The notes beneath the pieces are model-generated. The model was given only the letters and a program-made list of their open reading frames with translations. It made no database searches and was not told the DNA's origin. From IMG/VR virus record IMGVR_UViG_3300045988_125995: DNA of 37,650 nt; one strand, written 5' to 3'. The stretch is from a virus. A program made the translations under genes and the position numbers. Positions 6,522-26,239 of the stretch are shown here, piece by piece. Each line of letters begins with the position of its first letter. Position 1 is the stretch's first letter.

Positions 6522-7967
6522 TTGAAGAAGAAAGCGTCCGGAAATGTAAATATCGAGTGGGATCCGGGCGAGGTCAACCCGAAGCAGAAAGAATTCCTCG
6601 ACAGTCACACACTGTTCACCTGTTACGGCGGAGCAAAGGGCGGCGGCAAGACGCATATCGTCAGGATAAAGGCGATAGGCGCGGCGCTGGTGGGCTATCC
6701 GGGGATAAAGATACTCATAATGCGAAAGACGTATAACGAGCTGGAGGAAAACCACATCCGGCCGATACTGCGCATGGTGAGTCCGGAGCTGTTCAGCTAC
6801 AACAACACATCGCACTTGATGACCTTTGAAAACGGGTCAACCATCAAGTTCGGCCATTGGAGCGGAGAAGAGAGCTTCAACGAGTACAACGGCCTTGAAT
6901 ACGACTGGATTTTCATAGACGAGGCGACGCAGTTCACGGAGCGCGCCTTCAACTTCCTCGGCGGCTGTCTGCGAGGCGTGAACGACATTCCGAAGCGGAT
7001 GTACCTGACGTGCAACCCCGGCGGCGTAGGTCATGCCTGGGTCAAGCGGCTCTTCATCGACAGGGACTTCAAGCGAAGCGCGAACCCCGAAGAGGACGAG
7101 AATCCGGACGATTATACCTTCATCTTCGCAAAGGCGGAGGACAACACCTTCCTGCTCAAGTCCTCGCCTTTGTACCTGAAGAATCTAGCCCAGATGCCGG
7201 AGGAGCTTCGGCGCGCTTACCGTGACGGCGACTGGGACAGCATCGGCGGGAACTACTTCCCCGAAATGCTGAGTGGACGGAACGTGACGGCTCCGTTCAA
7301 GATACCGCAGCATTGGACGCGCTACCGCTCGTTTGACTACGGCCTTGATATGTTCGCCTGCTTCTGGTGGGCAGTGGACGAGGACGGGCGCTGCTGGTGC
7401 TACCGCTCGTTTGAGCATGAGGGGCTGATAGTAAAGGACGCGGCGAAGGCTGCGCTTGACCACACCCTTGCAAATGAGCAGATCATAGCGACATACGCGC
7501 CGCCCGATATGTGGAACCGGCAGAAAGAGACCGGCAAGACAATGGCGGAGTTGTTTCTCCTGAATGGCGTGAACATCGTGAGGAGCGACAATAACCGCGT
7601 ACAGGGGCACATGGTCATGAAAGACATGATGGCTCCGATAGCGCTGAAAGACCCCTATGTACAAAGCCTTTACCCCGCGGGGCAGGCTCCGGACAGACTG
7701 CCGGGGCTGATGTTCTTCGACGGGTGCAAGAAAGCAATCAGCGACCTGAAGGCGATACAGCAGGACGACAAGAACCCGAACGACTGCGCGAAAGACCCGC
7801 ACGAGATAACCCACACCGTTGACGGAATACGTTATTTCTGCGTGACGCGGGTTATAAGCGGTGAAGCCCTGCCGGAGCTTCAGCCGGAGGACGACGAGGA
7901 CGAGGACGGCGACAGCTACGAGCATTACATGTGCGGCGGCCGTGCCGACGCGAGATATTTACTGTGA
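6522..7967 (+). CDS. terL: Terminase large subunit
   Basis: TTG start 7 nt after GGGAGA. Walker A YGGAKGGGKTH; Walker B-like WIFIDEATQF; C-terminal nuclease-type region. No in-frame TAG. TGA stop. Confidence 0.9.
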   Translation: MKKKASGNVNIEWDPGEVNPKQKEFLDSHTLFTCYGGAKGGGKTHIVRIKAIGAALVGYPGIKILIMRKTYNELEENHIRPILRMVSPELFSYNNTSHLMTFENGSTIKFGHWSGEESFNEYNGLEYDWIFIDEATQFTERAFNFLGGCLRGVNDIPKRMYLTCNPGGVGHAWVKRLFIDRDFKRSANPEEDENPDDYTFIFAKAEDNTFLLKSSPLYLKNLAQMPEELRRAYRDGDWDSIGGNYFPEMLSGRNVTAPFKIPQHWTRYRSFDYGLDMFACFWWAVDEDGRCWCYRSFEHEGLIVKDAAKAALDHTLANEQIIATYAPPDMWNRQKETGKTMAELFLLNGVNIVRSDNNRVQGHMVMKDMMAPIALKDPYVQSLYPAGQAPDRLPGLMFFDGCKKAISDLKAIQQDDKNPNDCAKDPHEITHTVDGIRYFCVTRVISGEALPELQPEDDEDEDGDSYEHYMCGGRADARYLL

Positions 7968-7976
7968 GGTGACACG

Positions 7977-8375
7977 ATGGCAAAACCCGGCCCGAAGAGA
8001 AAATAGGACAGCCCTGACAAGCTGCGGGCAGCTGTCGAGGCCTACATAGAGAAGTGCGAGGCGGAAGGCATTTTCCCCGACGAAGCGGGAATGAGGCTTG
8101 AGCTTGGCGTTACGGCGCAGACCCTCGACAAATACTGCAAGGACGAGAACGCGGATGGGAAAGAGTTCCGCGAGATACTTTCGTGGGCGAAGGACAAGCG
8201 CGAAAGCTACCTCGTGCGGAAGATGACCAGCGACAACAAGGCGGCGCAGGGCTGCCTCAATGCGCTGAAGCAGCCGTCAAACGGCGGCTACATAGACCGG
8301 CCTGCCGACTCCGGCGGCGAGCGGAAGCTCACGATAAACCTTGTGGGAGTGGGCGGAGAGAGCGCCTTCAAGTAA
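7977..8375 (+). CDS. terS: Terminase small subunit-like protein, with in-frame TAG at codon 10 (8004-8006)
   Basis: ATG 7977 after GAGGTGA. Reads MAKPGPKRK[TAG]DSPDKLRAAVEAYIEKCEAEG...GVTAQTLDKYCK, the N-terminal motif plus HTH typical of TerS. The ORF-track fragment 8091-8375 is the same frame. TAA stop. Confidence 0.7.
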
Positions 8376-8386
8376 GGCGCGTATAT

Positions 8387-8470
8387 GGGCCGGTGGCAGA
8401 ATGGGATTGCGGCTGACTCTAAATCAGCTGCCTGACGGCGGAGAAGGTTCGATTCCTTCCCGGCTCACCA
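8387..8470 (+). tRNA. Amber-suppressor tRNA (anticodon CTA), class II with long variable arm and discriminator A73
   Basis: Acceptor GGGCCGG/CCGGCTC (one G-U pair); D stem GCAG/TTGC with loop AATGGGA; anticodon stem GCTGA/TCAGC with loop CTCTAAA (CTA at 8419-8421); 14-nt variable arm TGCCTGACGGCGGA; T stem GAAGG/CCTTC with loop TTCGATT; A then CCA encoded. Confidence 0.85.
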
Positions 8471-8487
8471 GAAAAAAGGAGATTACA

Positions 8488-8823
8488 TTGCTGACTATCA
8501 TACTTATCTTAATCTTTGCCGTGGTCTTCGTGGGCGCGCTTGCTGTTCTGCAACACAGCCTCTCAGGTAAAGCGGAAGAGGAAGACATGCTGGAACAGGT
8601 GGCGCGCCTTGCGAGAGCGCAGGAGCGGTTAAACACGCGGCTCGAAAAGCTGGAAGAGCAGGTCTTTCGGCAGAAGGGCGGCGAGCTTGACGAGATAAAA
8701 AGACGGCTCGAAGAGCTGGAGAGCGACACTGCGGGAGGCAACGCGGCGCTTGACCAGATGTTTCTCGCGGGGATCAACGGCATTATGAATTACGGCATGA
8801 AGGACGCAGTAAAGCGAGGCTGA
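8488..8823 (+). CDS. Membrane-anchored coiled-coil protein (about 111 aa), unknown function
   Basis: TTG start 7 nt after AAGGAG. N-terminal TM LTIILILIFAVVFVGALAVL followed by heptad-like LEKLEEQV...RLEELE. TGA stop. Confidence 0.55.
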   Translation: MLTIILILIFAVVFVGALAVLQHSLSGKAEEEDMLEQVARLARAQERLNTRLEKLEEQVFRQKGGELDEIKRRLEELESDTAGGNAALDQMFLAGINGIMNYGMKDAVKRG

Positions 8824-8826
8824 TAA

Positions 8827-10545
8827 ATGGGACAGTTTGATATTTTCTACGGCAAAAAGCTGCCTGATTAGCAGAGCGGCTGGCGGCTTTACGATGAGGC
8901 CGAACGCTTCAACTCCAACATAAACCTGCGCGAGACGGTGCGGGTGAACGAGAATTTCTACATTGGCAAGCAGTGGGAGGGCGTACAGTCCAACGGTCTG
9001 CCGACTCCGGTTTTCAACTTTATAAAGCGCGTCGTCGGCTTTGACGTGGCGACGATAACCTCGGACAACGTGAAGGTGACGGCCTCGCCGCTTGCGAACA
9101 CCGCGAACACCGACGGGCTTATAGAGCCGGTGCGGATAGTGAACGAGGAGTTTGACGCGCTGGCGGCAAGAAACAAGATATCCTCTCTGCTGAGAGAGTT
9201 TGCCCGCAATGCCGCGGTGGACGGCGACGGCTGCCTGTACACCTATTGGGACGCCGACGCGGAGACCGGCCAGCAGTCCAAGGGCATGATCCGGACGGAG
9301 ATAGTAGAAAACACGCGGGTGTACTTCGGGAACCCGAATGACCGGCGCGTACAGACCCAGCCGTGGATAATGATAGGCAGCCGCGAGATAACCCGCATCG
9401 TTCGCCGCAGGGCGAAGGAAAACGGGATGGCCGAGTGGCAGAGTATCAGCCCCGACTGCGAGGACGACAGCGTTGACACGGCGAAGGTGACGGACGACAA
9501 GACGACCGTGCTTCTGCTGCTGTGGCGCGACGAGGAGACGGGACACATATGGCAGTATGAATTCACACGCAATTCCGGTGTGACTGCCCCGATAGACACA
9601 AAGCTTTCGCTTTATCCTATCTGCTGGCTGAGCTGGGACTACGTGCAGGACTGCTATCACGGGCAGAGCATGGTGACGGGACTGACCCCGAACCAGATGT
9701 TCGTCAACAAGATTTGGGCGGCTGCGATGCTCTCGATGCTCCGCACGGCGTTCCCGAAATGGATATACGACAAGACCCGCATAAAGCGCTGGGACAACGG
9801 CGTCGGCACGGCAATCGGCATATCGGGCGGCGACGTATCAACGGTGGCGAAGGTGATAGACCCTGCCTCCATATCCCCGCAGGTGGCGCAGTTCATCGAC
9901 ATGGCGGTAAAGCAGACGGAAGAATGCCTCGGCGCTACGAGCGTTGCGCTCGGCGACACCCGCCCCGACAATACCTCCGCCATTATAGCCCTTCAGCGCG
10001 CAGCATCCACGCCGATGGAGATGACGAAGCTCAACCTTTATCAGGCGGTGGAGGACTTGTTCAGGATATACCTCGACTTCATGTCCGCCTACTACGGAGT
10101 GCGCGCGGTTGACATGGAGCCTACGCCGGAGATACGGCAGCAGTATGAATTTGCAGGGATGCCGGTTCCGGACTCCATCATTGCGGAATTCGACTTTGAC
10201 ACGTTGAAATTCCACCCGATGATGCTGAAGCTCGACGTCGGCGCAAGCTCCTACTACTCCGAGATAGCGTCAATCCAGACGCTGGATAATCTGCTAATGA
10301 ACGGGCATATCAACGCAATACAGTACCTTGAGAGAATCCCCGACGGCTATATACCGGCGCGCCGGGCATTGATAAACGAGCTGAAAGCAACGCAGGCCAT
10401 GAACGCGGTTCCGCCCGGAGCACCACCCAACGCGGCGACCGGCGACGTGGCGGCACAGGCAAAGCCGGAAATCCCCACGGGCGGCGGATTCTCTGATCTG
10501 CAACGCAAGGTGTTGGAGTCGGGATCGACTCAAGGACTTATCTGA
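8827..10545 (+). CDS. Portal protein, with in-frame TAG at codon 15 (8869-8871)
   Basis: ATG 8827 is in frame with ORF 8938-10545. Reads MGQFDIFYGKKLPD[TAG]QSGWRLYDEAERFNS..., then VNENFYIGKQWEG. About 570 aa and located next to the terminase. TGA stop. Confidence 0.8.
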
Positions 10546-10560
10546 CAGGAGGAAAAGAAA

Positions 10561-11058
10561 ATGAATGCACCTGACAAGGCGGCTGAGATAAAGGCCGCGA
10601 TAGCTGCATTTTTCGCTTTCCTGACGGCTCTCTGGGGCTGGCTGGGCTGGGCGATAATTGTGTGGCTGGGCTGCGTACTGCTGGACTATATCACCGGCAC
10701 GTGGGCGGCGAAATCCAACGGCGAATGGTCGAGCGCCGTTGCAAGAGCGGGGCTTTGGCACAAGCTGGGCGAGATAGTGGCGGTGCTGGTTGCGGCAATG
10801 TGCGATATCGCAATAGGCGTGATACTGAAAGGCTCCGGAATAGACTTCGGCATAGATTACAGTGTGTTGGTGACGCCGGTCGTGCTGCTGTGGTACATCG
10901 TAACTGAGCTGGGCTCCATTATTGAAAACGCAGGAAAGCTCGGCGCACCCATTCCCGAATGGCTGAAAAGGAGCCTGAAGAACTACAAGGATACGCTTGA
11001 CGCCAAAACCGGCGGCGGGGCGCATCTCCCCGAACACTCGGAAGAAGACAGGGAATAA
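10561..11058 (+). CDS. Holin (TcdE/phage holin family-4-like)
   Basis: Three hydrophobic helices. LDYITG..A.....WSS..........HK and TELGSIIENAGKLGAPIPEWL resemble toxin-secretion/phage-lysis holins. Confidence 0.7.
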   Translation: MNAPDKAAEIKAAIAAFFAFLTALWGWLGWAIIVWLGCVLLDYITGTWAAKSNGEWSSAVARAGLWHKLGEIVAVLVAAMCDIAIGVILKGSGIDFGIDYSVLVTPVVLLWYIVTELGSIIENAGKLGAPIPEWLKRSLKNYKDTLDAKTGGGAHLPEHSEEDRE

Positions 11059-11154
11059 GGCGAAAGCCTTTTCCCGTCTCTATAAGAATATATCCACCGG
11101 CATAGACCAATGCCGTAACATAGACCGCCGACCATAGCGGACAAGGAGAATTGA

Positions 11155-12045
11155 ATGTACGAAGAGATTAACGAAGCAGTTGAGACCGAAGGCGCTGAGG
11201 AATGGGCAGACAGCGACGCGTTCTGGGATGACGATCCCGCCGCGGAGACTGAACCCGCCGCAGAGCAGGAGGAGGCCGAGGGCGCCGAGGCTGACGAGCA
11301 GGAGGCGGAGGAGACCGATACTGCCGACGACCCTCACGACGAGGGCGCGGACGACGGAGCCGAGGAACCGGAGGGGCAGCAGGGTGAGAGCGCAGACCAG
11401 CGCTTTGAGCTCAAGCACCTTGAGGAGACACGGAGCGTTGACCGTGAAGAGGTTATAAAGCTTGCGCAGAAGGGCATGGATTACGACCGCATTCGAGAGG
11501 AACGCGACAGCATCCGCCCGGAACTGCGGCTTTACCGAGAATTCCTCAAGGAGCTTGCCGACGGCTCCGGACTGACCGTTTCGGAGCTGATAGACACGGT
11601 TCGGGCACAGCGCCTTGTGGCAAAAGAGAAGGAAAACGGCAAGGAGATGACCGAGGCCGAAGCACTGATAAAGGTGCAGCGCGAGCGCAGCGAGAAAGCC
11701 AAGAGCGCGCCCAAGGCCGAGGAAGAGGCTCCCCCGAAGGAAGAGAAGCCCGCAGAGGCTAAAGCGGAGGACTCCCGCAAGGAGAGCTTCGCACGGTTTG
11801 CAAGGGAATTCCCCGACGTCAAGGCCGAGGATATACCCGCCAAGGTATGGCAGGATTTTTCCGCCGGAAAAGGCGACCTTGCGGACATCTACGCGAGACA
11901 CGAGAACGCGGCGCTCAAGGCCAAGATTGCGGCCATGGAGCGCAACGAGGACAACAGAAAACGCTCCACGGGGAGCAGAAAAAGCAGCGGCGCAAAGGCG
12001 AAGGACATCTTCGACAGCGCATGGGAAGATTCACCCTACGACTGA
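11155..12045 (+). CDS. Scaffolding protein (acidic, coiled-coil)
   Basis: ATG after AAGGAGA. Highly E/D/A/K-rich and lies immediately upstream of the major capsid gene. Confidence 0.6.
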   Translation: MYEEINEAVETEGAEEWADSDAFWDDDPAAETEPAAEQEEAEGAEADEQEAEETDTADDPHDEGADDGAEEPEGQQGESADQRFELKHLEETRSVDREEVIKLAQKGMDYDRIREERDSIRPELRLYREFLKELADGSGLTVSELIDTVRAQRLVAKEKENGKEMTEAEALIKVQRERSEKAKSAPKAEEEAPPKEEKPAEAKAEDSRKESFARFAREFPDVKAEDIPAKVWQDFSAGKGDLADIYARHENAALKAKIAAMERNEDNRKRSTGSRKSSGAKAKDIFDSAWEDSPYD

Positions 12046-12083
12046 TTTTTCGCCTCCGGGAGCCATTAACGGAGGAAATATAA

Positions 12084-13145
12084 ATGGCAACTATAAATCT
12101 TATGGACAAGTGGGCGCCTCGCCTTGAGAAGCGCTTTACGACCGGCTCCATCACCGACAAGTGGTGCGGCACCAACTGGGAGTGGACCGGCGTTAACACC
12201 CTGAAGACTCTGACTCTGCTTACCGACCCCCTGAACGATTAGAACCCTGCGGCAAATGCGAACCGCTTCGGCACTATGACCGAGGTGGACGACGAGGCCA
12301 ACTCCTACACGCTGACCAAGAAGCGCAGCTTTGACAAAGCCTTTGACGAGACCAACGTGCAGGATCAGAACTTCCTCAAGAAGGGCGCGGCCTACCTCAA
12401 GCAGATGTGGGACGAGAGATACGTCCCTGAGATCGACACCTACCGTTTCGCCCGCTGGGCAGACGGCGCAGGTCTCGGCACTGTCGCTACGGCGGCTATC
12501 TCCAAGACCAATATCGTCGAGGCGCTGCTGAACGCTCACGCCGCGCTTGATGACGCGGGCGTCCCGATGGAAAACCGCGTTACCTTCATACGCAGCGACT
12601 ACGCTGTAAAGTACAAGCTTGCGGACGAGTTCAAGTATGAGGGCGCGAAGGAGTTCATCCAGAAACGCCAGATCGGCGAGGTCGAGGGCAGCCCGCTTAT
12701 CAAGGTTCCGAAGAACCGCTTCCCGGCCGGCGTGGCCTTCATGGTCAAGTACAAGCAGGCGACGGCAGACCCCGTAAAGATGCGTATGCTCCGCGCAAAG
12801 GACGACTCCGATGACCTGTGCGGCGTCCGTATGCAGGGTCTCGTCCGCTACGACAGCTTCGTGCTGGCGCAGAGCGCAGACGGCATCTATGTCTACGGCG
12901 AGAACGCAGGCAACGTGCTTCAGGCTCCGACCTTCTCCACCGCCTCAAACAAGGTGACTATCACGAGCGCCGACAGCGCAAGCATCAAGTACACCACTGA
13001 CGGCACCAACCCCAAGACCTCGGCGACTGCGCAGGCTTACAGCGCGGCTGTGACCATCACGGAGAACACCACGTTCAGAGCATACGCCTACGCGACCGGC
13101 AAGACCAGCTCCGCCATCGGCAGCTACGATGCGGTGAAGACCTGA
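12084..13145 (+). CDS. Major capsid protein with C-terminal Fn3/CHB_HEX_C-like decoration domain; in-frame TAG at codon 53 (12240-12242)
   Basis: ATG 12084 after GGAGGA. Reads MATINLMDKWAPRLEKRF...LLTDPLND[TAG]NPAANANRFGTMTEVDD, in frame with ORF 12276-13145, which has no SD of its own. C-terminus IKYTTDGTNPKTS...TTFRAYAYATGK. A strong terminator follows. Confidence 0.8.
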
Positions 13146-13151
13146 TCCAAT

Positions 13152-13180
13152 AAAGGGCAGAGCAATGCTCTGCCCTTTTT
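13152..13180 (+). terminator. Rho-independent terminator after the capsid gene
   Basis: AAAGGGCAGAGC-AAT-GCTCTGCCCTTTTT. Confidence 0.8.
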
Positions 13181-13199
13181 CAAAAGGAGCGAATAAAAA

Positions 13200-13634: not shown

Positions 13635-13648
13635 AGCGAGGCGGATAA

Positions 13649-15466
13649 ATGGCGACTATAAGCGGCAGCACAAGCGAAAAGATATTCCAGATAAAAGCAT
13701 GGCTGGGGCTGAACGAGAACCCAGACGGCGATACCAAGCTGAAGCTTGGCGAGGCGGCGGCAATGCGTAACTTTGCCATTACGCGAGACGGGAATCTACG
13801 CCGCAGACCCGGCAGCAAGAAGATTGCAAGCCTCGGATCCTCCCCCGTGCGGGGCATGTGGACGGGCTACATAAACGGGAAAGAGGAGTTCATCGCCGCC
13901 TGCGGCGGCAAGCTCTGGCGGCTGTGGAACGCGGAGACGGGAGCCTTCACTGCGACCGAGATAGGCAGTATCGACACCACGAATGAGGTACATATGTTCG
14001 GCTTTTCCGAAATACTCTACCTCATAAACGGCAGCGAATACAAGCAGTATGACGGCACGACGCTTTCGGACGTCGGCGGGTACAGGCCGCTTGTGACGAT
14101 AGCCGTACCTCCGAGCGGCGGCGGGGAAACGCTGGAGGAGGTAAACAAGCTCGTAGGCACTCGGCGCTGCTGGATATCCCCGGACGGTAAGGCGGCGGAA
14201 TTCACGCTTCCGGAAAGCGGCTTGCAGAGCCTTGACTATGTGAAAGACCTGAAAACCGGCGAGAATTTGGCGGCGAGCGCATACACGGCAGACCTGACGG
14301 CAGGAACAGTGACCTTTACTGAAGTTCCGGCGCTCGGCGTAAACAGCCTTGAGATAGGCTGGACGATGGCGACGAACTTCCGCACACAGGTAAGCTCGAT
14401 GCGGTACAGCGAGCTTTACGACGGTGCGCAGGACACGCGGGTTTTCCTCTACGGCGACGGGAGCAATCAGGCGATATACTCAGGGCTTGACTACGACGGC
14501 AAGCCGAGGGCGGACTATTTCCCCGACCTGAACGTTGTGAACGTTGGCGATGCGAACACGCCCATCACCGGACTGATACGGCATTACTCCACGCTCGTTG
14601 CCTTCAAGTCGAGCAGCGCGTGGAGCATACGCACGAGCGAGCTTACGCTGGCCGACGGCGCAACGACGAAAGCCTTTTATGTATCGCCTATAAACAGGGC
14701 GATAGGCAACGCTGCGCTGGGGCAGACGCGCCTCGTGCTGAACTCGCCCAGAACGCTGCACGGCAAGGACGCTTTCGAGTGGCGGAACAACAGCAGCTAC
14801 TCCTCGAACCTGACGGCGGACGAGCGGCAGGCGAAGCGCATAAGTGACCGGATATACGCGACGCTGGGCGGCTTTGACCTTGCGAAATGCTACTGCTGGG
14901 ACGACAACGACAATCAGGAGTATTACATCTGCTATAACGGCAAGGCTCTTGTGCAGAACTACGCGGCGGACGCTTGGTACTGCTACGACGGCTTTGACGC
15001 GGTATGCATGGCGAACTTCCACGGCGCGCTTTACTACGGCACGTCCGGGGGCGCGATAGAGCATTTAGGCTACGAGCATATCACCGACGACGGGCGGGCT
15101 ATCGACGCATATTGGGAAAGCGGCTCGATGAGCTTTGGGCAGGATTACATGCGCAAATACTCCGCTCAGATATGGGTAGGCATAAAGCCGGAGGCAAACG
15201 GCGAAGTGACCGTTACGGCGCAGACAGACAGAAAAAGCACCTACGCCGAAAAGATTGTGGCGAGCCAGATGGCGAGCTTCAGGCGCGCGAACTTCCGGAA
15301 CTGGAGCTTTGGCACGAACCGCAAGCCGCATATGACAAGGCTGAAGATAAAGGCGAAGAAGTTCGTCTTTTATAAGCTTATATTCATGGCGGCGGAGCCT
15401 GACACGACATGCACGATACTTGCGGCGGATATGCGAGTGAGGTTTACCGGATATACGAAGGGGTGA
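13649..15466 (+). CDS. Large virion/tail structural protein (605 aa), possibly a tail tubular/nozzle-type protein
   Basis: Uninterrupted ORF in the late operon, beta-rich in composition. No tail tube, sheath or chaperone-frameshift genes are seen, which hints at a podovirus-like tail. Confidence 0.45.
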   Translation: MATISGSTSEKIFQIKAWLGLNENPDGDTKLKLGEAAAMRNFAITRDGNLRRRPGSKKIASLGSSPVRGMWTGYINGKEEFIAACGGKLWRLWNAETGAFTATEIGSIDTTNEVHMFGFSEILYLINGSEYKQYDGTTLSDVGGYRPLVTIAVPPSGGGETLEEVNKLVGTRRCWISPDGKAAEFTLPESGLQSLDYVKDLKTGENLAASAYTADLTAGTVTFTEVPALGVNSLEIGWTMATNFRTQVSSMRYSELYDGAQDTRVFLYGDGSNQAIYSGLDYDGKPRADYFPDLNVVNVGDANTPITGLIRHYSTLVAFKSSSAWSIRTSELTLADGATTKAFYVSPINRAIGNAALGQTRLVLNSPRTLHGKDAFEWRNNSSYSSNLTADERQAKRISDRIYATLGGFDLAKCYCWDDNDNQEYYICYNGKALVQNYAADAWYCYDGFDAVCMANFHGALYYGTSGGAIEHLGYEHITDDGRAIDAYWESGSMSFGQDYMRKYSAQIWVGIKPEANGEVTVTAQTDRKSTYAEKIVASQMASFRRANFRNWSFGTNRKPHMTRLKIKAKKFVFYKLIFMAAEPDTTCTILAADMRVRFTGYTKG

Positions 15467-15470: not shown

Positions 15471-16268
15471 ATGGCATTTACAAAACTGACAGAAGATATT
15501 GCATAGATAAGCAAGCTGGACGACGAGCCGAATGACGTTGACGGGCTTTCCGCCGACCAGCTGAAAGCGACGTTCGACAAGGCCGGGATTACTATCAAGA
15601 CGTGGATAAACACCGTTCTGCTCCCCGCGCTTGAGGGCAGCGCGGCTGCCGGAAACCTCGGCATAGCAGCAATATCCGGTCTTACCGGCATAGCAACTGT
15701 GCAGGCGGCGCTGGAAAAGCTTGAAGCGCAGATAAGTGAGGCGGCAGTCGGTGACATTCCAGACGCATCTCTCACAGCGGCAAAGCTGGCAGACAACGCT
15801 GTTACCGGAAGCAAGATAGCGGACGGCGCGGTAGGCTCGGCGAAGATAGCGGACGGTGCCGTGACATCGGGCAAGCTTGGCGCGGGCGCTGTAACGGCGG
15901 AGAAGATAGCAGCTCTAGCCGTTGCGACTGCGGCTATTGCGGAGCTGGCCATTACCACAGCGAAGATAGCAGACAAGGCCATTACCACAGCGAAGATAGC
16001 AGACAAGGCCGTCGGCACTTACCAGATGGACGACAGCAGCATTACGTCTGCAAAAATCAGAGGCGGAGTCGTTACAGCAGACAAGCTTGCGTCCGGCGCG
16101 GTTACTACCACAAAGCTTGGCGCGGGCGCAGTCACCGGCGAAAAGCTGGCAGCAGGTGCACCCAATACGGCAATGGCAGCGACGCGGTACAAACTGGTCA
16201 GCGGTGTACACTATGGCAGCTCTTTGCCGCCGGACATCGCAGACGACGAGCTGTTTTTCCTTGTATGA
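15471..16268 (+). CDS. Tail fibre-like protein with Ala/Gly/Val/Lys-rich ~10-residue repeats of the type (I/L)A-D/x-x-A(V/I)T-x-x-K; in-frame TAG at codon 12 (15504-15506)
   Basis: ATG 15471 after AAGGGGTG. Reads [11 protein letters not shown][TAG][27 protein letters not shown], in frame with ORF 15699-16268. Confidence 0.7.
15951..16010 (+). repeat. Perfect 30-bp tandem duplication inside the fibre repeat region
   Basis: ATTACCACAGCGAAGATAGCAGACAAGGCC occurs twice (15951-15980 and 15981-16010) and encodes [10 protein letters not shown] twice. Confidence 0.95.
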
Positions 16269-16825: not shown

Positions 16826-17134
16826 ATGACAATATTGCAGGGCGACGCATAGCTCATACCGATAGCATTGACAGCTGACGGCGAGCCTGTCACGGACGCG
16901 GATATTGAGGCGATGGAGGTCATTCTCGGCGGCATATCCAAGCTCTACCCGGACGAGCTGGGCTATGCCAACGGCGAGTTCCAGTTCCCGCTGACGCAGG
17001 AAGAGAGCTTCGCTATGGCAGAGGACAGATACGACCTTCTGATACGGCCTAAGTTTGCCGACGGCACCGTGTCGGGCGTACTCAAGGCAGGGGAGATAGA
17101 GGTCGTAGCGACAGACACGAGGAGAGTGCTGTGA
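16826..17134 (+). CDS. Small virion protein; in-frame TAG at codon 9 (16850-16852)
   Basis: ATG 16826 sits 4 nt after AAGGAGG. Reads MTILQGDA[TAG]LIPIALTADGEP..., in frame with ORF 16868-17134, whose TTG start has no SD. Confidence 0.65.
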
Positions 17135-17418
17135 TGAGAACCGTGACGGCAAAGATGCAGCGGGTGCGGCGGATAAGCGCCAACATTGGCGCAGGCTCAC
17201 AGCTCGCTCTTGACCTCGGAATAAAGATAACGGCCGACACGTCGCCAAAATATACCGGAGAATATGACGTGCGGCCTAAGACTTACGAGCCGGTGGTGCT
17301 GGAGACGAAGGGACGCTCAATGCTGGACGACGTGACAGTGCAGAAAATCCCGCAGTTCGAAGTTTCAAACGACGCGGGCGGGAAAACACTTATTTTGGGG
17401 GATGAATATTATGGCTAA
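17134..17418 (+). CDS. Small virion protein (94 aa)
   Basis: ATG 17134 overlaps the upstream TGA (TGATG). GGAGAG lies 7 nt upstream. TAA stop. Confidence 0.55.
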   Translation: MRTVTAKMQRVRRISANIGAGSQLALDLGIKITADTSPKYTGEYDVRPKTYEPVVLETKGRSMLDDVTVQKIPQFEVSNDAGGKTLILGDEYYG

Positions 17419-17995
17419 CTAGTTCAACAAGGTAATACTCGGTACAGAGGTAAAGCTTGACCTTACGGGCGACGACATAACCGCGGCTGACCTGAAGAAG
17501 GGTATCAAAGCGCACGACAAGAGCGGAGCGCCAATCGTCGGCACGAATACGAACGACGCGAACACCTCGGACGCGACGGCGACTGCGGCGGAAATACTCA
17601 AGGATAAAACCGCTTATGTGGCAGGTTCCAAGCTGGCCGGCACGATGCCGAACAACGGGGCAAAGACACTTGAAATAGCTACCAAGGACGGCACACCACC
17701 CATCCCCATGGGCTTTCACGACGGCAGCGGCAAGGCGCAGATAGCGGCGGCGGAGAAAGCAAAGCTTATCCCCGAAAACATCCGCGAGGGCATAACAGTG
17801 CTCGGCGTAGCCGGTTCTATGTCCGGTTCCGAAGGAATGAAGCCGCAGGCAAAGTCTGTCACTCCGAGCTTCGCAAGTCAGGAGGTTCTGCCCGACAGCG
17901 GCTACAATTGCCTGTCCTCGGTGACGGTCGCGGCGATACCTGTTTCAGAAGCAGCCAACGCGGCGGGAGGAATAACGCTCACGATAGGAGGCTGA
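17411..17995 (+). CDS. Tail fibre/spike N-terminal-module protein (paralogous N-terminus to 17997-18641); in-frame TAG at codon 4 (17420-17422)
   Basis: Reads MAN[TAG]FNKVILGTEVKLDLTGDDITAADLKKGIKAHDKSG, in frame with ORF 17618-17995. The neighbour starts MGVSKVIIDDEVKLDLTADTVEPAALKAGYTAHNAAG. Confidence 0.65.
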
Positions 17996-18641: not shown

Positions 18642-18645
18642 AGCC

Positions 18646-19461: not shown

Positions 19462-19474
19462 TAAGGAGGACAAT

Positions 19475-20245
19475 ATGGCAAAGACAAATACCGGACTCGT
19501 CGAGTACGCACTGGCGCAACTGGGCAAGCCCTACTGGTGGGGCACCTTCGGGCAGACGGCCTCGGCGGCGCTGCTCGCGCAGAAGCGTGAGCAGTACCCG
19601 GATAGGTATGACTCGTATGGCGACGAGTGCAAGAAGCAGTATGGCCAGAAGGTACATGACTGCGTCGGGCTTATCAAGGGCTATCTTTGGAGCGACACAC
19701 CGGACAGCGAGCCTATATACAAGGCGGCGCAGGACGTGGCGGTATCTGGGCTGTATCTGGTCTGCCCTGAAAGCGGCAGCATCGACACCATGCCTGACAT
19801 ACCGGGCGTGTGCGTGTTTATGCGGGACATGTCCCACGTCGGCGTTTACGTCGGCGGCGGCTACGTCGTAGAGGCAACCGGCCACGCGCGCGGCGTGGTC
19901 AAGACCAAGCTTGCAGGGCGCGGCTGGGGGCTGTGGGGCAAGCCCCGCTGGATAAGTTACGAGGCTGCTGCCACTCCAGCACAGCCTGCACAGACCGCAC
20001 AGACCACCGCCTCGGGGCTGACCGTCACCGGCCTGCCGCTGCTGCGCTACGGCGACAAGGGAGAGTGCGTCCGCTCGGCGCAGATGCTCCTCATCGGGCG
20101 CGGCTACTCCTGCGGCAGGTGCGGCGCGGACGGCGAAATAGGGCAGGACACTTTCAATGCGGCGGTGGCGTACCAGCGCGCCTGCGGCTTGCAGCAGGAC
20201 GGTATCATAGGCGCTCAGACTTGGGCGCGGCTGATAGGAGGTTAA
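19475..20245 (+). CDS. Endolysin: NlpC/P60-type peptidase plus C-terminal peptidoglycan-binding (PG_binding_1-like) domain
   Basis: LGKPYWWG...HDCVGLIKGY (Cys) and SHVGVYVGGGYVVEA (His). C-terminus GDKGECVRSAQMLL..GY.....DGEIGQDTFNAAVAYQRACGLQQDGIIGAQTW. Confidence 0.85.
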   Translation: MAKTNTGLVEYALAQLGKPYWWGTFGQTASAALLAQKREQYPDRYDSYGDECKKQYGQKVHDCVGLIKGYLWSDTPDSEPIYKAAQDVAVSGLYLVCPESGSIDTMPDIPGVCVFMRDMSHVGVYVGGGYVVEATGHARGVVKTKLAGRGWGLWGKPRWISYEAAATPAQPAQTAQTTASGLTVTGLPLLRYGDKGECVRSAQMLLIGRGYSCGRCGADGEIGQDTFNAAVAYQRACGLQQDGIIGAQTWARLIGG

Positions 20246-20248
20246 GGC

Positions 20249-21196
20249 ATGGCAACCTTTGAGGAAACCTACAGCAAGTACAATGCTGACCGTGCATCTG
20301 CTATAAACGGAATGTACGACGCTCAGAAAGCCGCTACGCTCAGTCAGCTTGAGAGCGCATAGAACCAGAACCGGCAGACACAGGAGGCGGCCAAGAACCA
20401 GATAGCGCCGACGTATCAGCAGAGGGCGAATGACCTCGCGGTGCAGTATGAGCGCAACCGCCGGAACTTCAACCAGCAGGCGGCGGGCAGCGGCCTCAAC
20501 ACCGGCACGGCGTCGCAGGCGGCGCTCGCCCAGAACAGCACTTGGCAGAGGGATTACGGCAATCTCCGCACGGCGGAGGCGGACGCACTGACGGAGGCTG
20601 ACCGGCAGATGGCGGCGCTTGAGACGCAGTACAAGTCCGCAGTTGCTCAGGCGATAGCCGAGAACGACTACAACCGCGCAAAAGCGCTCATGGACGAGTA
20701 CGGCAATCAGGAGTCCCGCGACGCGACAATGGCGAAGATACTTGCTGGCTACGGAGACTTCAGCGGCTACGCAAAGCTCTACGGCGACGACGCTGCAAAC
20801 AACATGGCGCAGTATTGGATATACTCAAACCCGCAGCTTGCTTACAGTATGGGCAAGATAAGCGCAGACGAGTATGCAAGGCTGACCGGGAAGCGCACCG
20901 GCGGCAAGGCGACCGGAGGCAAAACGCTCAGTGAGGCTTTCACTGATGATAAATATGGGCAGGATTACACCAGCAACGGTCTTAACCTCACGGATATGAT
21001 GGAACTCATCAATAAGGGCGACACGCTTTCGGCTCTCAGACAGGCAGAGGCTTTCGCCGCAGATGCCTACGCAAACCCCGACAAATACACCGACTCTCAA
21101 ATTGAGCGAATGGTCGAACTCAAAAGAATGGCGCAGAGAGGCCAGAAGATTAGCGGTTCGGTTGGCGGCGGGCGGAACCTCGACGCACTTAGATAA
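20249..21196 (+). CDS. Q/A/N-rich coiled-coil virion protein; in-frame TAG at codon 38 (20360-20362)
   Basis: ATG 20249 after AGGAGG. Reads ...ATLSQLESA[TAG]NQNRQTQEAAKNQIAPTYQQRAND, in frame with ORF 20441-21196, which starts at an internal GTG. Confidence 0.65.
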
Positions 21197-21211
21197 CAGA
21201 AAGGTGTCATT

Positions 21212-24200
21212 ATGGCAAGTAGAGAAGAAAACCTCAGATACCTTGCGGGCGGCAGTTTGCCAAAAGATACCGGAGCCGCAAACGGATCCAGTATTACTGG
21301 CACTAAGGAAGTGCAAACTGATGGACTGAGCGAAAAAGCTCGACGCAGAGAAGAGAACCTCAGATACCTTGCTACGCCTGCGGAGGACATCACTCCGAAA
21401 AACGAGACCGTCGAGAACAGCAGCTTCACGAGCAAGAGCGGCAAGTTTGACGCTTCTGCCGCGGCTCCTACCGCCGACTATACCCAGCAGCGCGCGAAGC
21501 TGCAAAAGGAGCTTGACAGGCTCGACAACGCCGCCGCATACGTGACGACCACGGAGCAGAGCGACGAGATAGACGCGCAGCGCAAGCCCATAATAGAACA
21601 GCTGCGCAAGCTCGACGAGGCGGAGGGCAAGACCGGCGTATACACCGGCGGCGACCGGCTGAAAAACGCCCTCGGCAACGCGAAGCTTGCGACTCAGCAG
21701 GGCTTGACGCAGGCTGACCACCGGATAGCCCAGACCGCCGACTGGCTCTTCGGCGGCATCGCCAAGGAGGGCAAGGCGCTTGTGAACGCTACCCTTCAGA
21801 CGATAAACCCCAACTGGGGCTTCGAGGACGAAGACCCGTGGATTACGAGATATAACAAGCGCGGGACTGAGGTGCTGGCACAGAACGACGCCGTAGCCCA
21901 GCGGCGCATTGAGGAAGGCAAGCTCAACAAGACCGCTTGGAAGTATGCCCCCGAAGTCGTGGCCGCTATCCCCGACGCTGTGCTGGCCTTTGCGACAGGC
22001 GGCGCGAGCACCGGCGCACAGGCGACGAGAGCGGGGCTTGAGACGGCTTCGGCCATAGCGCAGGGCAGCAGCGCGGCGCAAAAGCTCATCCCAATTGCGG
22101 ACGCTACGAAGAACATGATGAAGTCTCCCGCGTGGTTGAGCGCCTTTGCGCAGACCGCGGGCGGAAGCTACGAGGAGGCACTGGCCGACGGCGCGACGGA
22201 GGAGCAGGCGAACCTCTACGCGCTCCTCAACGGCTTTGCGAACGCTACGATTGAAGTCGGCGGTACTGACGAGGCGATGGGCGGTATTCAGAAGCTGCCG
22301 CAGCAGCTCAGAGACGCGCTCGAAAAGGGCAACAAGCGCGCCGTTATGCAGTGGGTACGGAGCCCGGCGGGCGAGGCGATAGAAGAAGTGCTTCAGGGTA
22401 TGGCCGAGAAGGGACTGCGCGGGCTTTATACGAACGACGTTCCGCTTTACTCGGAAACCGACGAGAACGCGGTAATAAACCCGAAGCGCGCCAAGGAAGA
22501 AGCCCTCGGCGGACTCATCGTCGGCGGTGTACTCGGCGGCGGGCAGATGGCCATACAGTCCGCTATCAACAGCGGCAGGGGGCAGAACGCGAACGGCGCC
22601 CAGACGGCGCAGGAGACGCAGAACGCGGCGGGGGATATCTCCGCACCACCCACGCAGGAGAACGCCGACACGGGCGCTTCTGCGCGGTTAAACTCCGACG
22701 TACAGACCGACGTGGACTCACAGAACGCAGAGGACATAAAAAAAGCAGCCTCCGAGGCTGCAAATGCCGATATAACGGGAGACTCGCGCGTCGCCAATGC
22801 CGAAGCCTCGCGTAGCACGTCCGAAACGAAAAATGCACTCTCTCCCGCGGCGGAAGCAGATGCTTCCAATGCCAATATAGCACCGGAAGCGCAGAATGTC
22901 AATCCCAACGTCCCCGCGCAAACGGTGGAGGAGTCCGGCGGGAAGAAGCGGAGTCAGACCGAGGCGCACACCCTCCAGACGATAGACGAGCGCCTTGACA
23001 CTCCGGCGGCGGAGCGCGAGGAGCTGTATTATATCCCGAAATCCGAGAGCGAGAGTCTGCGCGAGGCGGCGGAGCGTATACGCGAGGACATGCCCGGAGC
23101 GCGGGCGGAGCTTGCGGCGAAGGACATGTGGAGCGGGACTGACCACGACACGGCAATGGGCATACTCGGATCACTGAACCGTGAGGCCGCGCAGACCGGC
23201 AATTATGACGACTTCCGCGCATGGCGCAGGACGATACAGGAACACGGCACGGACACGGCGCGGGCTTTGCAGTCCCTCGCCAAGTACACGCGCACCGGAA
23301 CAGGGGCGATGATGGACGCGGTGGATATCATCGACAGCTCCAACATAAGCGGCGAGCTTAAATCTGCGCTCACGGCAGAGGTCGGGCGTTACTCCGAGGA
23401 GTACGACGCGGCGCGAGCCAAGGCCGAAAACGGCAATCTCGCCGACATGGCAGACCTCATAGAGCGCATGGCGAGGCGGCGCAACACTTGGACTTTCGGC
23501 AAGAACCGATACAGCAAGATCGTCCGCGAGCTCGCGTCGGACAAGTCGAACGCTGAATGGCTCACGGACTACGCATACAGGCAGATATCCGCAATAGCAA
23601 GCGACGCCGCGGTGAAGGTTCCCTTCTCGCAGAAGGTGAAGAGCGCGCAGACGACGGCACAGCTCACGAGCATCGGGACGTTTCTCCGGAACATCGGCGG
23701 CAACGTCACCTTCGGAGTGCAGGACACGCTCTCTCAAAACGGTGTAGCTCTCGCCATTGACCGCCTCATCTCGCAGGCGACGGGGAAAAGAACCGTCGGC
23801 GCGGACAAAAGCTGGTTTTCCTCCGAGGCGAGGAAGGGCGCACGGGACGCGATGCAGAAATCCATACTTGAAGTCGCGGGCGACATCGACATGAACGGCA
23901 ATGAGAACCGCTACGGAATGACGTCGAGCCGGTCATGGAGGATGAGCGGAAACGCGGCGGAGCGCTTCATGTCCCGCTGGCAGCAGCTTCTCGGCTACTC
24001 GCTGACGACCTCCGACCGCTTCTCCCGCGGCGCGATAGAGGCGGAGATCACGCGAGGGCTTGACGCTCTTGGCAACAGCGGGCTGACGGCGGAGGAAAAG
24101 GCTGCCATTGCAAAGCAAACCGCCGACTACCGCCTGTTTCAGAATCACGGCGAAGCTTACAAAGCCTCAAAGGCGATACATGACTTTTTCAACGTCGCCG

Positions 24201-26239
24201 GTTTCGGCGGCACGAGGAACGGAGCGACACGCCAGGGCGGCTTCGGTCTCGGCGACGTCGTGAACCCCTACCCCGGAGTCCCCGCAAACCTCGGCGTGAA
24301 AGCGCTGGAATACTCGCCCGCAAACGTCATAAAAGGCGGAGCGGAGATCATAAAGGTTCTGAAAGATACGAAGAACGGAAAGCTTGACGCGGCGAAGCAG
24401 CATCAGGCCGTTATGGATGTTTCCAGAGGCGTGACCGGCACGGCAATGGTGGCGCTCATGGCGGCGCTGTTCAAGGCGGGCTTTATACGCAACAGCGATG
24501 ACGAGGACGACCTCGACGCGAAGGCAAGAAACGCGGAGCGCGGACTGAGCGGAGTGCAGATAAACGTGGACGCGGCGCTCGACTGGCTGAGCGGCAAGCC
24601 CAAGCGCGAATGGCGGGAGGGCGACACGCTGGTCTCCGTAGACTGGATGGAACCGCTGAACGCCTTTATGGCGATAGGCTCGCTTATCGCAAACGACACC
24701 GATGCTGACCTCGGTTCCTACGCGGTGGACTATGCCGAGGGAGCATTTCAGGCGCTCATGGATATACCCGTAATGAGCAATCTCAAGAGCTTGGACGACA
24801 CGATCCGGTACTCCAATTCGGACAACTGGAGTGAAGCCTTAGGCGAGGGCCTGGCGGAATACGGCACGAACACGGCGACGGGCTTTATCCCTGCACCCTT
24901 CCGGCAGATCGCAAAGGCGCTTGACCCGTATTACCGCGACACCTCGGCTGACACGGCGGGGCAGAAAGCCCTGAACAAGGTGAAAAACGCCATCCCCGGC
25001 CTGCGGCAGACCCTCGACCCGAAGCTCGGCGCGACGGGAGAGCTGAAGAAATACAACGAAGGCGGCCTTCAGCACATGCTGAATTCGCTGTTTCTGCCGG
25101 GCAGCATATCTACGCTCGGCGGCAGCGAGACGGACACGGAGCTTGAAAAGCTCTACAAGGCGACCGGCATGGAGAACATATATCAGGATCGGAAAGCGCC
25201 TAAGAGCGTAAGCCTCGCCGGGGAGAAATACGAGCTGACGAACGACGAGAAGCGCAGCTATCTCCAGACGCAGGGGCAGGCCACGGAGCGGACGCTGAAA
25301 AACTTCATGGACAGCGAGCTTTACGGCATGATGACCGACAAGGAGAAGGCACAGACCATAGCGGCAATAAACGAGTATGGCCGCGAGGAGGCAAAGGCGG
25401 AGCTTTTCAAGAACCGCGGCATTGAGCGCGAGAGCGGCAACGAGGGGCTTTCAGACGTCAAAAACGTCGGGGAATACCTCGGAGCGAAGACGGCGTTCAC
25501 ACAGGCGAAGAAACAGAACGACTACTCGGCGCAGGACAAGTTTCTCAAGGTCTATGACCAGCTGACGGCGGGGACGAAGCGGATGCTTGAAAACTCCTCG
25601 GCGACGGCGCGCATGGACGACATGGCCGAGGCTTACGAGAAGGGCGGCATCCGCGCCAAGGAGTGGAACACCGTATACGAGAAGTACAAGGAACTCAACG
25701 GCACGAAGCGCAGCGGCTACACGGCATCGGACAAGGCGACGGACTTTGAGGCATGGATGGAGCGGGAGGGCTTCACCCAGGACCAGCGGAAGATGCTCGC
25801 CGATCAGTTCACGTTTTTCAGTCAGGTGCCGGGCGATGCGGGGCGCTACAACTCCCTGAAGGACGCCGGGTTCGACACCGACAGCGCATACGCGATATAC
25901 GACAAGGTGTCGTCGCTGACTGCGCCAACGGGCGAGAAGACCGTGAAGGACTGGCAGAAGCTTGAGGCCATAAACAGCCTCGATCTGACGGGCGAGGAGA
26001 AGATAAAGGCGCTCAGCGTATACTACCCGCCGAACGACGACGGCAAGGAGGACGCCATGGTTCGCCGCTACAAGGCGGCGGAGGAGCAGGGGATTTCCTT
26101 TGCGACGTGGACGAAGGCGATGAAGATCATCGCAGGCGCGGACGGCACGAGCCGGAAGGCGATATTCGCGGCGGTACAGGAGGCGGGCTACACCGAGACG
26201 GACGCGCAGATTATCTACGACATCTGGAAGCACTCGTGA
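21212..26239 (+). CDS. Giant (1675 aa) virion protein: internal/ejection or tape-measure-like
   Basis: Single uninterrupted ORF. Gly-zipper hydrophobic segments (GGLIVGGVLGGGQMAI, GTAMVALMAALFKAGF) and long helical regions. Last gene of the late operon. Confidence 0.55.
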   Translation: MASREENLRYLAGGSLPKDTGAANGSSITGTKEVQTDGLSEKARRREENLRYLATPAEDITPKNETVENSSFTSKSGKFDASAAAPTADYTQQRAKLQKELDRLDNAAAYVTTTEQSDEIDAQRKPIIEQLRKLDEAEGKTGVYTGGDRLKNALGNAKLATQQGLTQADHRIAQTADWLFGGIAKEGKALVNATLQTINPNWGFEDEDPWITRYNKRGTEVLAQNDAVAQRRIEEGKLNKTAWKYAPEVVAAIPDAVLAFATGGASTGAQATRAGLETASAIAQGSSAAQKLIPIADATKNMMKSPAWLSAFAQTAGGSYEEALADGATEEQANLYALLNGFANATIEVGGTDEAMGGIQKLPQQLRDALEKGNKRAVMQWVRSPAGEAIEEVLQGMAEKGLRGLYTNDVPLYSETDENAVINPKRAKEEALGGLIVGGVLGGGQMAIQSAINSGRGQNANGAQTAQETQNAAGDISAPPTQENADTGASARLNSDVQTDVDSQNAEDIKKAASEAANADITGDSRVANAEASRSTSETKNALSPAAEADASNANIAPEAQNVNPNVPAQTVEESGGKKRSQTEAHTLQTIDERLDTPAAEREELYYIPKSESESLREAAERIREDMPGARAELAAKDMWSGTDHDTAMGILGSLNREAAQTGNYDDFRAWRRTIQEHGTDTARALQSLAKYTRTGTGAMMDAVDIIDSSNISGELKSALTAEVGRYSEEYDAARAKAENGNLADMADLIERMARRRNTWTFGKNRYSKIVRELASDKSNAEWLTDYAYRQISAIASDAAVKVPFSQKVKSAQTTAQLTSIGTFLRNIGGNVTFGVQDTLSQNGVALAIDRLISQATGKRTVGADKSWFSSEARKGARDAMQKSILEVAGDIDMNGNENRYGMTSSRSWRMSGNAAERFMSRWQQLLGYSLTTSDRFSRGAIEAEITRGLDALGNSGLTAEEKAAIAKQTADYRLFQNHGEAYKASKAIHDFFNVAGFGGTRNGATRQGGFGLGDVVNPYPGVPANLGVKALEYSPANVIKGGAEIIKVLKDTKNGKLDAAKQHQAVMDVSRGVTGTAMVALMAALFKAGFIRNSDDEDDLDAKARNAERGLSGVQINVDAALDWLSGKPKREWREGDTLVSVDWMEPLNAFMAIGSLIANDTDADLGSYAVDYAEGAFQALMDIPVMSNLKSLDDTIRYSNSDNWSEALGEGLAEYGTNTATGFIPAPFRQIAKALDPYYRDTSADTAGQKALNKVKNAIPGLRQTLDPKLGATGELKKYNEGGLQHMLNSLFLPGSISTLGGSETDTELEKLYKATGMENIYQDRKAPKSVSLAGEKYELTNDEKRSYLQTQGQATERTLKNFMDSELYGMMTDKEKAQTIAAINEYGREEAKAELFKNRGIERESGNEGLSDVKNVGEYLGAKTAFTQAKKQNDYSAQDKFLKVYDQLTAGTKRMLENSSATARMDDMAEAYEKGGIRAKEWNTVYEKYKELNGTKRSGYTASDKATDFEAWMEREGFTQDQRKMLADQFTFFSQVPGDAGRYNSLKDAGFDTDSAYAIYDKVSSLTAPTGEKTVKDWQKLEAINSLDLTGEEKIKALSVYYPPNDDGKEDAMVRRYKAAEEQGISFATWTKAMKIIAGADGTSRKAIFAAVQEAGYTETDAQIIYDIWKHS

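Follow-up and report, generated by a model that had tools for sequence, protein, structure and literature searches.

The IMG/VR virus record IMGVR_UViG_3300045988_125995, a stretch of 37,650 nucleotides that was analysed as a whole and is called the window below, contains seven late genes with an in-frame TAG codon shortly after their start, together with a gene for an amber-suppressor tRNA with the anticodon CUA (tRNA(CUA)). The first and last 119 bp are identical (1-119 = 37532-37650) and form a terminal direct repeat, as is typical of a circular assembly; the window holds a complete, circularly closed genome with a unique part of ~37,531 bp and represents a temperate podophage. Its late genes form a single long operon on the plus strand, extending from ~6.1 to 26.2 kb, in which genes for tRNA-Thr and tRNA-Met are followed by terL, terS, tRNA(CUA) and the genes for a small membrane/coiled-coil protein, the portal, a holin, a scaffold and the major capsid protein (MCP), and then by tail and fibre genes, an endolysin gene and the genes for a coiled-coil protein and a protein of 1675 aa.

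When the plus strand of the late operon (6522-26239) was scanned with only TAA and TGA taken as stop codons, exactly seven in-frame TAGs were found inside late genes, in a total of 6,425 codons (~1.1 per 1000 late codons). The first two are located at codon 10 (8004-8006) of terS (7977..8375, GP3_package family, ATG at 7977) and at codon 15 (8869-8871) of the gene for the P22-like portal (8827..10545, assigned by Pfam, ATG at 8827). The MCP gene (12084..13145, ATG at 12084), which codes for a member of the N4-gp56 family with a C-terminal Ig-like domain, has its TAG at codon 53 (12240-12242), the gene for a fibre-like protein (15471..16268, ATG at 15471) at codon 12 (15504-15506), and that for a 102-aa protein of the virion module (16826..17134, ATG at 16826) at codon 9 (16850-16852). 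The last two sites are codon 4 (17420-17422) of a first spike N-module paralog (17411..17995, ATG at 17411) and codon 38 (20360-20362) of the gene for the coiled-coil late protein (20249..21196, ATG at 20249). A second spike N-module paralog (17997-18641) has its N-terminal ~45 aa in common with the first. Twelve late genes are free of TAG, among them those for terL, the holin, the scaffold, the 605-aa tail protein, the endolysin and the 1675-aa protein. The scan thus confirms what a sequence-only reading of the window had proposed, namely that seven late genes carry one TAG each, between codons 4 and 53, and that without suppression only a short peptide would be made, which comes to 3-52 aa depending on the gene. 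No sequence motif or downstream element common to the TAGs was recognized, the next base being G, C, A, A, C, T and A, respectively.

The gene for tRNA(CUA) (8387..8470, plus strand) was detected by ARAGORN and reaches 56 bits with the Rfam tRNA model, compared to a threshold of 29 bits. It begins 11 nt after terS and ends 6 nt before the ribosome-binding site of the next gene, and its 84 nt fold into a cloverleaf of the canonical class II form, in which the variable arm measures 14 nt. It has a G1-C72 pair, A73 and an encoded CCA; it also carries U35 and A36, as required for an amber tRNA of the Tyr type. The label 'tRNA-Pyl' given by ARAGORN is due to the CUA anticodon and nothing more, and a pyrrolysine tRNA is ruled out by the 14-nt variable arm, the canonical GGTTCGATTCC T-loop and the GG of the D-loop. 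Among the called genes of the window, there are no pyl genes and no genes for a release factor or an aminoacyl-tRNA synthetase. All loci of the clade that cover the terS-portal junction contain both tRNA(CUA) and TAGs, whereas none of the seven outgroup loci covering the same junction contains either; the closest outgroup (L101), whose MCP is 74% identical, has neither tRNA(CUA) nor any TAG. The suppressor tRNA of the sequence-only reading is therefore indeed encoded, and its co-occurrence with the TAGs is perfect. Only a single variant of tRNA(CUA) is present in the clade, a change of G2 to A that turns the G2.U71 pair into A2-U71 and keeps the 2-71 pair. No match for the tRNA sequence was found in the cultured-phage databases, and an exact-match scan for the anticodon arm returned three extra matches, none of which is a tRNA. 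A scan for promoter-like sites ahead of tRNA(CUA), which covered the sigma-70 consensus only, found none, in a phage that has its own sigma factor. As judged from its position, tRNA(CUA) is probably transcribed together with its client genes.

The seven TAGs are to be regarded as sense codons inside their genes, because each of them is preceded by an ATG with a Shine-Dalgarno (SD) motif, because homology extends upstream of them, and because they co-occur with tRNA(CUA). SD motifs are present before all seven upstream ATGs, including a strong one (AGGAGG) ahead of ATG 16826 of the 102-aa protein, and none is found at the next in-frame starts 6-65 codons downstream, such as position 8091 after the TAG of terS; the gene for the fibre-like protein has no in-frame start over 64 codons past the TAG, and spike N-module 1 has none over 65 codons. 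Homology to relatives with the standard code persists upstream of every TAG (7/7). The Pfam match of terS covers residues 8-94 and crosses the TAG, the portal aligns with that of the closest outgroup from residue 3 through the TAG, and residues 1-52 of the MCP, which precede the TAG, are conserved among relatives. Alignments of the fibre-like protein with its counterparts in L009, L007, L101 and L102 start at residue 1-2 and cross the TAG, those of the 102-aa protein (L011/L091) start at residue 3 and run across the TAG site, and those of the coiled-coil protein (L012/L095 and L089) start at residue 14-19. In spike N-module 1, the residues around the TAG vary within the clade and the TAG itself stays. 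Gene callers operating with the standard code cut the portal to 533 aa, split the MCP into parts of 52 + 289 aa and truncate terS and the fibre-like protein; their calls on the window lose N-termini and split one gene, with no heavy fragmentation.

As a stop codon, TAG is used by none of the 19 late genes and by three early genes, all on the minus strand (28172-28711, coding for a sigma factor, 26333-26692 and 2948-3403). Back-up stops follow 3-4 codons behind the TAG of the sigma factor gene, in tandem in 26333-26692 and after 20 codons in 2948-3403, so that amber suppression late in infection would add short tails to the three early proteins. The early genes are tightly packed, leaving no room for TAG-bearing extensions, and have no in-gene TAG, in agreement with the earlier statement that the TAGs are confined to late genes. 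A purging of TAG stops from the late genes as an adaptation was considered and rejected, since TAG already accounts for only 5 of 72 late-gene stops (7%) in the outgroups, a baseline against which 0/19 in the window is not significant and thus uninformative.

Of the other genes of the late operon, those for tRNA-Thr(CGU) and tRNA-Met(CAU) (6150..6302, plus strand; ARAGORN) are located directly upstream of terL; the Rfam gathering score is reached by tRNA-Thr(CGU), but not by tRNA-Met(CAU). Between these two genes, some relatives contain an additional, odd gene resembling that of a tRNA, whose anticodon loop is irregular (L001:3669-3741; L005:3392-3464). The gene for terL itself (6522..7967, plus strand; Pfam Terminase_3 / Terminase_6N) contains no TAG and is interrupted in some members of the clade: the terL match of L002 (1160-3625) is split by ~1 kb, and the called terL product of L105 (1-1715), with a length of 634 aa, shows a LAGLIDADG_3 match, which suggests the insertion of an intein or a homing endonuclease. 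A sequence search of the PDB with terS yielded no useful match. The suppressor tRNA is followed by the small membrane/coiled-coil gene (8488-8823, plus strand). The holin (10561..11058, plus strand; Phage_holin_4_1, Pfam E = 4e-34) is encoded within the head module, between the portal and the scaffold and 8.4 kb away from the endolysin, and its gene has no TAG. The same applies to the genes for the acidic scaffold-like protein (11155..12045), which was assigned from position and composition, for the 605-aa tail protein (13649..15466), for the endolysin (19475..20245; NlpC/P60-like + PG_binding_1 by Pfam) and, in the window, for the 1675-aa virion protein (21212..26239), all on the plus strand. 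The Ig-like domain at the C-terminus of the MCP (12939-13145; CHB_HEX_C_1 / Fn3_assoc) is missing from shorter members of the family (~275 aa).

Outside the late operon, the temperate nature of the phage is marked by a TAG-free integrase gene (300..1601, plus strand; PHROG 1, E = 8.5e-43). An early block on the minus strand codes for Dam, dUTPase, helix-turn-helix proteins and a sigma-70-family factor (28172..28711, minus strand; the called gene matches Pfam Sigma70_r4 / r4_2), whose gene ends in TAG and which likely drives late transcription. Contigs of 36-39 kb that are near-identical to the window phage recur across human gut metagenomes, and distant relatives are found in metagenome-assembled genomes (MAGs) of Oscillospiraceae. 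The cultured-phage databases hold no close relative, but only distant portals resembling that of Bacillus phage Page. One relative (L090; JABLTO010088334.1, 55.5 kb) extends ~18 kb beyond the phage and may represent an integrated copy with host flanks.

A view on the residues that occupy the TAG sites in relatives indicates that UAG is most likely read as tyrosine. Site 53 of the MCP is occupied by Tyr in 113 of 114 homologs, all of which were scored against the window MCP, and the codon is TAT in two relatives with 99% identical MCPs (L083/L084). Site 10 of terS is Tyr (TAT) in the closest outgroup, the site of the 102-aa protein is Tyr (TAC) in L011/L091, and that of the coiled-coil protein is Tyr in L012/L095 and L089. 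The remaining sites are variable in the relatives, with Cys (L101), His or Ala in the portal, Ile in the fibre-like protein and His in the spike protein. Since Tyr is thus found at 4/4 conserved sites and only 20% of the codons one step away from TAG code for Tyr, the alignments point to the insertion of Tyr. The method is able to discriminate, as the TAGs of a second phage lineage described below align mostly with Leu. Reading of TAG as glutamine (genetic code 15) does not appear to apply, because the sites align with Tyr and a class II tRNA would be a misfit for Gln. The anticodon arm of tRNA(CUA) is identical to that of a phage tRNA-Tyr(GUA) at 22 of 23 positions, and its anticodon loop, CUCUAAA, differs from the Tyr(GUA) loop solely at position 34. 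Charging with Tyr by the tyrosyl-tRNA synthetase of the host appears most likely.

The position of the TAGs within their genes is clearly not random. If seven TAGs are placed by permutation on all Tyr-like late codons, the probability that all seven fall within the first 53 codons is 3.5e-6; the corresponding values are 2.4e-6 for all single-step neighbour codons and 8-9e-5 if one Tyr codon is drawn within each of the seven genes. The expected fraction in the first 53 codons is 16-18%, compared to the observed 7/7. The earlier assertion of an N-terminal bias exceeding random drift is therefore borne out by the permutation test it had called for, with P values from 2.4e-6 to 9e-5. That each gene has just one TAG carries no signal of its own (P ~0.12, or ~0.28 with the TAGs confined to 5' windows; not significant).

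The loci of the clade keep all seven sites, apart from exceptions in the MCP and spike genes, even in alleles of only 77-90% identity; thus, the TAG of the coiled-coil protein is kept in an allele that is 77% identical (L005). The exceptions are the TAT codon in the MCP gene mentioned above and codon 4 of the spike gene, which is CAC or CAT in L083/L084/L090, with spike modules of 94-97% identity. Two TAGs have been gained: in L004/L006 codon 39 of the 1675-aa protein is TAG, where the window has CTG, and in L083 codon 482 of the large protein is TAG, where the window has CAG. The large protein of L083 (18187-21062) shows a match to a PBECR3 domain, its amber codon 482 being placed in a low-complexity linker, and the large virion protein is generally a mosaic across the clade, with 33-94% identity by segment. 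The variable fibre cassettes of relatives, with genes of 505 and 794 codons among them, are free of TAG. A comparison of the relatives, as proposed in the sequence-only reading, thus shows that most TAG positions are kept, but also that two were lost and two gained. A uniform scatter of TAGs in relatives, which would have spoken against the bias, is not apparent, since 8/9 distinct sites of the clade lie within 53 codons (Kolmogorov-Smirnov P = 1.5e-5), codon 482 being the mid-gene site. The list of genes given earlier as lacking TAGs holds for the window, but is not fixed, as relatives carry TAGs in the 1675-aa protein. Extra conservation of the TAG sites was tried as evidence for selection and gave no signal: 2/7 TAG sites are variable, compared to 50/181 ordinary Tyr codons, a comparison of low power. 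The turnover of the sites is consistent with weak selection.

As a control, the long open reading frames (ORFs) of 59 other viral loci with a similar tRNA(CUA) were scanned, mostly on contigs of more than 80 kb and with most of the TAGs supplied by TAG-dense loci. The 582 TAGs found are evenly spread over the deciles of the genes, and 13.6% of them fall within 53 codons of the start. A second and unrelated lineage with sparse TAGs was recognized in this way on IMG/VR contigs (L026, L054/L108, L113/L114 and L109; L026:3443-8796; L054:422-9368), in which a Leu-like tRNA(CUA) adjoins packaging genes. It contains 16 homology-anchored TAG sites in four genes, coding for a phosphoesterase-like protein, a protein of ~290 aa, terL and the portal, and the residues aligned with them are for the most part Leu, Ile or Val. 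No two of its four sublineages have a site in common. Of the 16 sites, 11 fall within the first 20% of their genes, with P = 5e-5, an estimate that is conservative because anchoring by tblastn under-detects TAGs near the gene start.

Taken together, these features may be explained by a sparse amber recoding that is mediated by the phage tRNA and in which the 5' clustering reflects position-dependent selection under leaky suppression, an explanation we hold with about as much confidence as doubt. Because the phage contributes no release factor or synthetase, tRNA(CUA) must compete with release factor 1 (RF1) of the host, which would leave each UAG leaky. Every UAG would then act as a leaky valve, which some ribosomes pass while others release a peptide of 3-52 aa, and incomplete suppression would be tolerated only where failure is cheap, i.e. 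where little synthesis is wasted and no long fragments of capsid, portal or fibre proteins are made that might poison assembly. Seven packaging and virion proteins would depend absolutely on tRNA(CUA), and their output would scale with the level of this tRNA. With tRNA(CUA) placed inside the late operon, the arrangement would constitute a feed-forward threshold or attenuator on late output rather than a timer between early and late expression, and the output of the late operon would be expected to rise faster than linearly with late transcription.

Several points weigh against this explanation. Charging with Tyr, the incompleteness of suppression, the joint transcription of the tRNA and its clients and the cheapness of failure as the selective reason are all features we infer from the sequence. 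The backbone of tRNA(CUA) ties between Leu and Tyr tRNAs (global identity ~0.65-0.70), so that an isotype assignment by similarity to other class II tRNAs had to be abandoned, and its D-arm with a 7-nt loop is rather Leu-like. A dedicated promoter of tRNA(CUA) may exist inside terS and be read by the sigma factor of the phage. The gained TAG at codon 482 lies in the middle of its gene, and the presence of a TAG in the gene of the MCP, the most abundant virion protein, appears odd if TAGs are merely tolerated. Finally, the chief cost of a UAG, the lower yield of full-length protein, is independent of its position, so the argument of cheap failure requires that toxicity or waste of the truncated products matters.

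The sequence-only reading had gone further and interpreted the 5' TAGs as a translational gate, by which assembly is held back until the suppressor tRNA has accumulated and the prophage is silenced. Such an adaptive checkpoint, in which the 5' position would provide a clean off-state, appears possible, if somewhat unlikely. It would account for the significant 5' bias, for the occurrence of TAGs in the nucleators of assembly and packaging (portal, MCP and terS), for the persistence of a TAG in a 77%-identical allele, for the gain of a TAG by another late gene at its codon 39 (L004/L006), and for the same bias in the second lineage; moreover, the hypothesis has already been published for recoded phages and prophages (bioRxiv 10.1101/2021.08.26.457843), and a functional analogue is known with the bldA/TTA system. 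However, tRNA(CUA) is located within the operon of its clients, with no independent signal evident, and probably cannot serve as an independent earlier signal that accumulates first; the part of the proposal that made assembly wait for tRNA accumulation is weakened, as the tRNA probably originates from the same transcript as its clients. Near-identical relatives have lost the gates of the MCP and spike genes without any further change being visible, TAG sites are not more conserved than synonymous Tyr codons, and no functional logic divides the gated from the ungated genes. The earlier observation that the lysis genes and terL are ungated is correct in that they contain no TAG, but with holin and endolysin TAG-free the prophage is left unprotected from the most dangerous leaky products. 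The gate is supported in part only, and the observed pattern needs no checkpoint, being explained as well by position-dependent purifying selection under leaky suppression.

A more general claim would be that 5' placement is a functional rule of incipient sparse recoding, with the TAGs serving as early-abort valves and possibly as parts of an all-or-none switch with positive feedback, given that the tRNA gene is located downstream of the first valve in the same operon; this seems unlikely at present. Such a switch, possibly reinforced by Rho, would filter leaky late transcription in lysogens, and the densely and uniformly recoded phages would represent a later stage of the same path.

It is improbable that the TAGs are neutral passengers of a tRNA that was gained for another reason and which they then rendered indispensable, as in a ratchet. 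The turnover of the sites, which resembles that of synonymous Tyr codons, would be in line with such a course, as would the rarity of TAG as a stop already present in the family (5/72 outgroup late-gene stops) and the origin of new TAGs from single-step neighbours at variable sites (CAG, codon 482). In that case, the 5' bias would have to stem from mutation or tolerance instead of selection on cost, yet the uniform distribution expected under pure neutrality is rejected, and 4/7 sites are conserved Tyr positions rather than parts of tolerant N-terminal tails.

Quite improbable, too, is a polarity switch, in which the untranslated mRNA would be terminated by Rho if the tRNA is missing, the 5' position of the TAGs maximising polarity. 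A classical gradient of polarity with the position of nonsense codons is known from the lac operon of E. coli. Suppression at codon 10 of terS would feed back positively on the expression of the downstream tRNA gene, making the response all-or-none and extending it to the ungated lysis genes. The geometry fits, with the first TAG 380 nt upstream of the tRNA and TAGs across 12 kb of one operon, but the proposal is a geometric one only and presupposes that Rho would act on this operon in a host presumed to belong to the Oscillospiraceae.

A generic ramp of rare codons at the 5' ends, with TAG as the rarest 'Tyr codon' among rare codons crowding the first 30-50 positions, is very improbable. The first 53 codons do show a lower GC content at third codon positions (0.66 vs 0.74) and slightly more rare codons (4.35% vs 3.56%), but rare codons are enriched by a factor of only 1.2, without significance (P = 0.23), and a value of 7/7 is unreachable with an expectation of 16-18%. 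Finally, that the TAGs are ordinary stops in spurious 5' extensions, with the true starts downstream, can practically be discarded: chance is expected to place in-frame stops shortly ahead of gene starts, standard-code callers report shorter genes, other upstream in-frame TAGs in the window and its relatives are indeed spurious extensions (e.g. 17985, 19391-19448), and the literature gives the same explanation for N-terminal in-frame stops in the integrases of recoded phages, but all seven TAGs are preceded by conserved residues, of which 64 would be missing from the MCP with a downstream start, the downstream candidate starts have no SD motif (two genes having no start at all for 64-65 codons), sense codons occupy the MCP and spike sites in near-identical genomes, and a dedicated tRNA(CUA) is encoded.

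The clade offers a snapshot of how a change of the genetic code may start, with a tRNA and seven sites present together, with sites being gained and lost between near-identical genomes, and with nearly all TAG sites placed where failed suppression would cost least. A minimal form of recoding exists that is missed by standard gene callers and probably by screens for coding density. Should the 5' rule be general, it would amount to a quantitative prediction on the cost of ambiguous decoding. It would also follow for annotation that an N-terminal in-frame TAG is not to be set aside as a miscalled start where a tRNA(CUA) is also encoded, and the early-placed amber codon suggests a natural design for tRNA-dependent kill-switches in engineering.

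Recoding of TAG with the help of suppressor tRNAs is well known from phages of the gut, namely the crAss-like, Lak, Garnet and Topaz clades (bioRxiv 10.1101/2021.08.26.457843; PMC9523058), and it has been proposed that recoding gates late genes, silences prophages and serves as a lysogeny switch (Borges et al., bioRxiv 10.1101/2021.08.26.457843). The window phage shares with them the in-frame TAGs, a phage-encoded tRNA(CUA) and a host with the standard code, the latter being deduced here from standard-code relatives, as well as the confinement of TAGs to late genes, a TAG-free integrase and an ancestral scarcity of TAG stops. Like the Topaz prophage, it is temperate, with relatives in Oscillospiraceae MAGs. 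In contrast to the many TAGs per gene of the recoded gut phages, the window contains only seven TAGs in 37.5 kb, which most likely stand for Tyr and not for Gln. Its lysis genes are not recoded, contrary to the published rationale (bioRxiv 10.1101/2021.08.26.457843), it lacks a release factor/synthetase module, and TAG is still the stop codon of three early genes. The strictly 5'-proximal position of its TAGs also differs from the uniform distribution at other tRNA(CUA) loci, and full-text searches of the literature found no description of recoded phage stops being biased towards the 5' end. A regulation of late genes by recoding has been published before, while the sparseness, the likely reading as Tyr and the strict 5' placement are new.

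The seven in-frame TAGs resemble those that result from miscalled start codons in annotation, where a TAG is likewise met in frame a few dozen codons or less from the start assumed, but they differ from them in that homology, SD motifs and sense alleles place the TAGs of the window inside genes. The tRNA itself resembles the supF tRNA-Tyr of E. coli, being a class II tRNA with a CUA anticodon, a G1-C72 pair and A73 that has to compete with RF1. Whereas supF is a laboratory mutant, the tRNA of the window phage is natural, conserved and needed by seven essential genes, and its short D-arm with a 7-nt loop is rather Leu-like, its charging with Tyr being probable.

A functional parallel is provided by the bldA/TTA system of Streptomyces, in which 92% of ORFs bearing a TTA codon contain no more than one and most of the sites are poorly conserved, with several conserved TTAs located at nt 16-165 (PMC10327506). 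In both cases, the translation of a few genes is made conditional on a single scarce tRNA, usually with one codon per client gene. However, TTA is a sense codon, and failure to read it results in stalling, whereas failure in the window phage would result in termination by release factor. Moreover, bldA is a chromosomal regulator of development, and its tRNA is regulated apart from its clients, whereas the tRNA(CUA) of the window phage is located inside the operon of the genes it serves.

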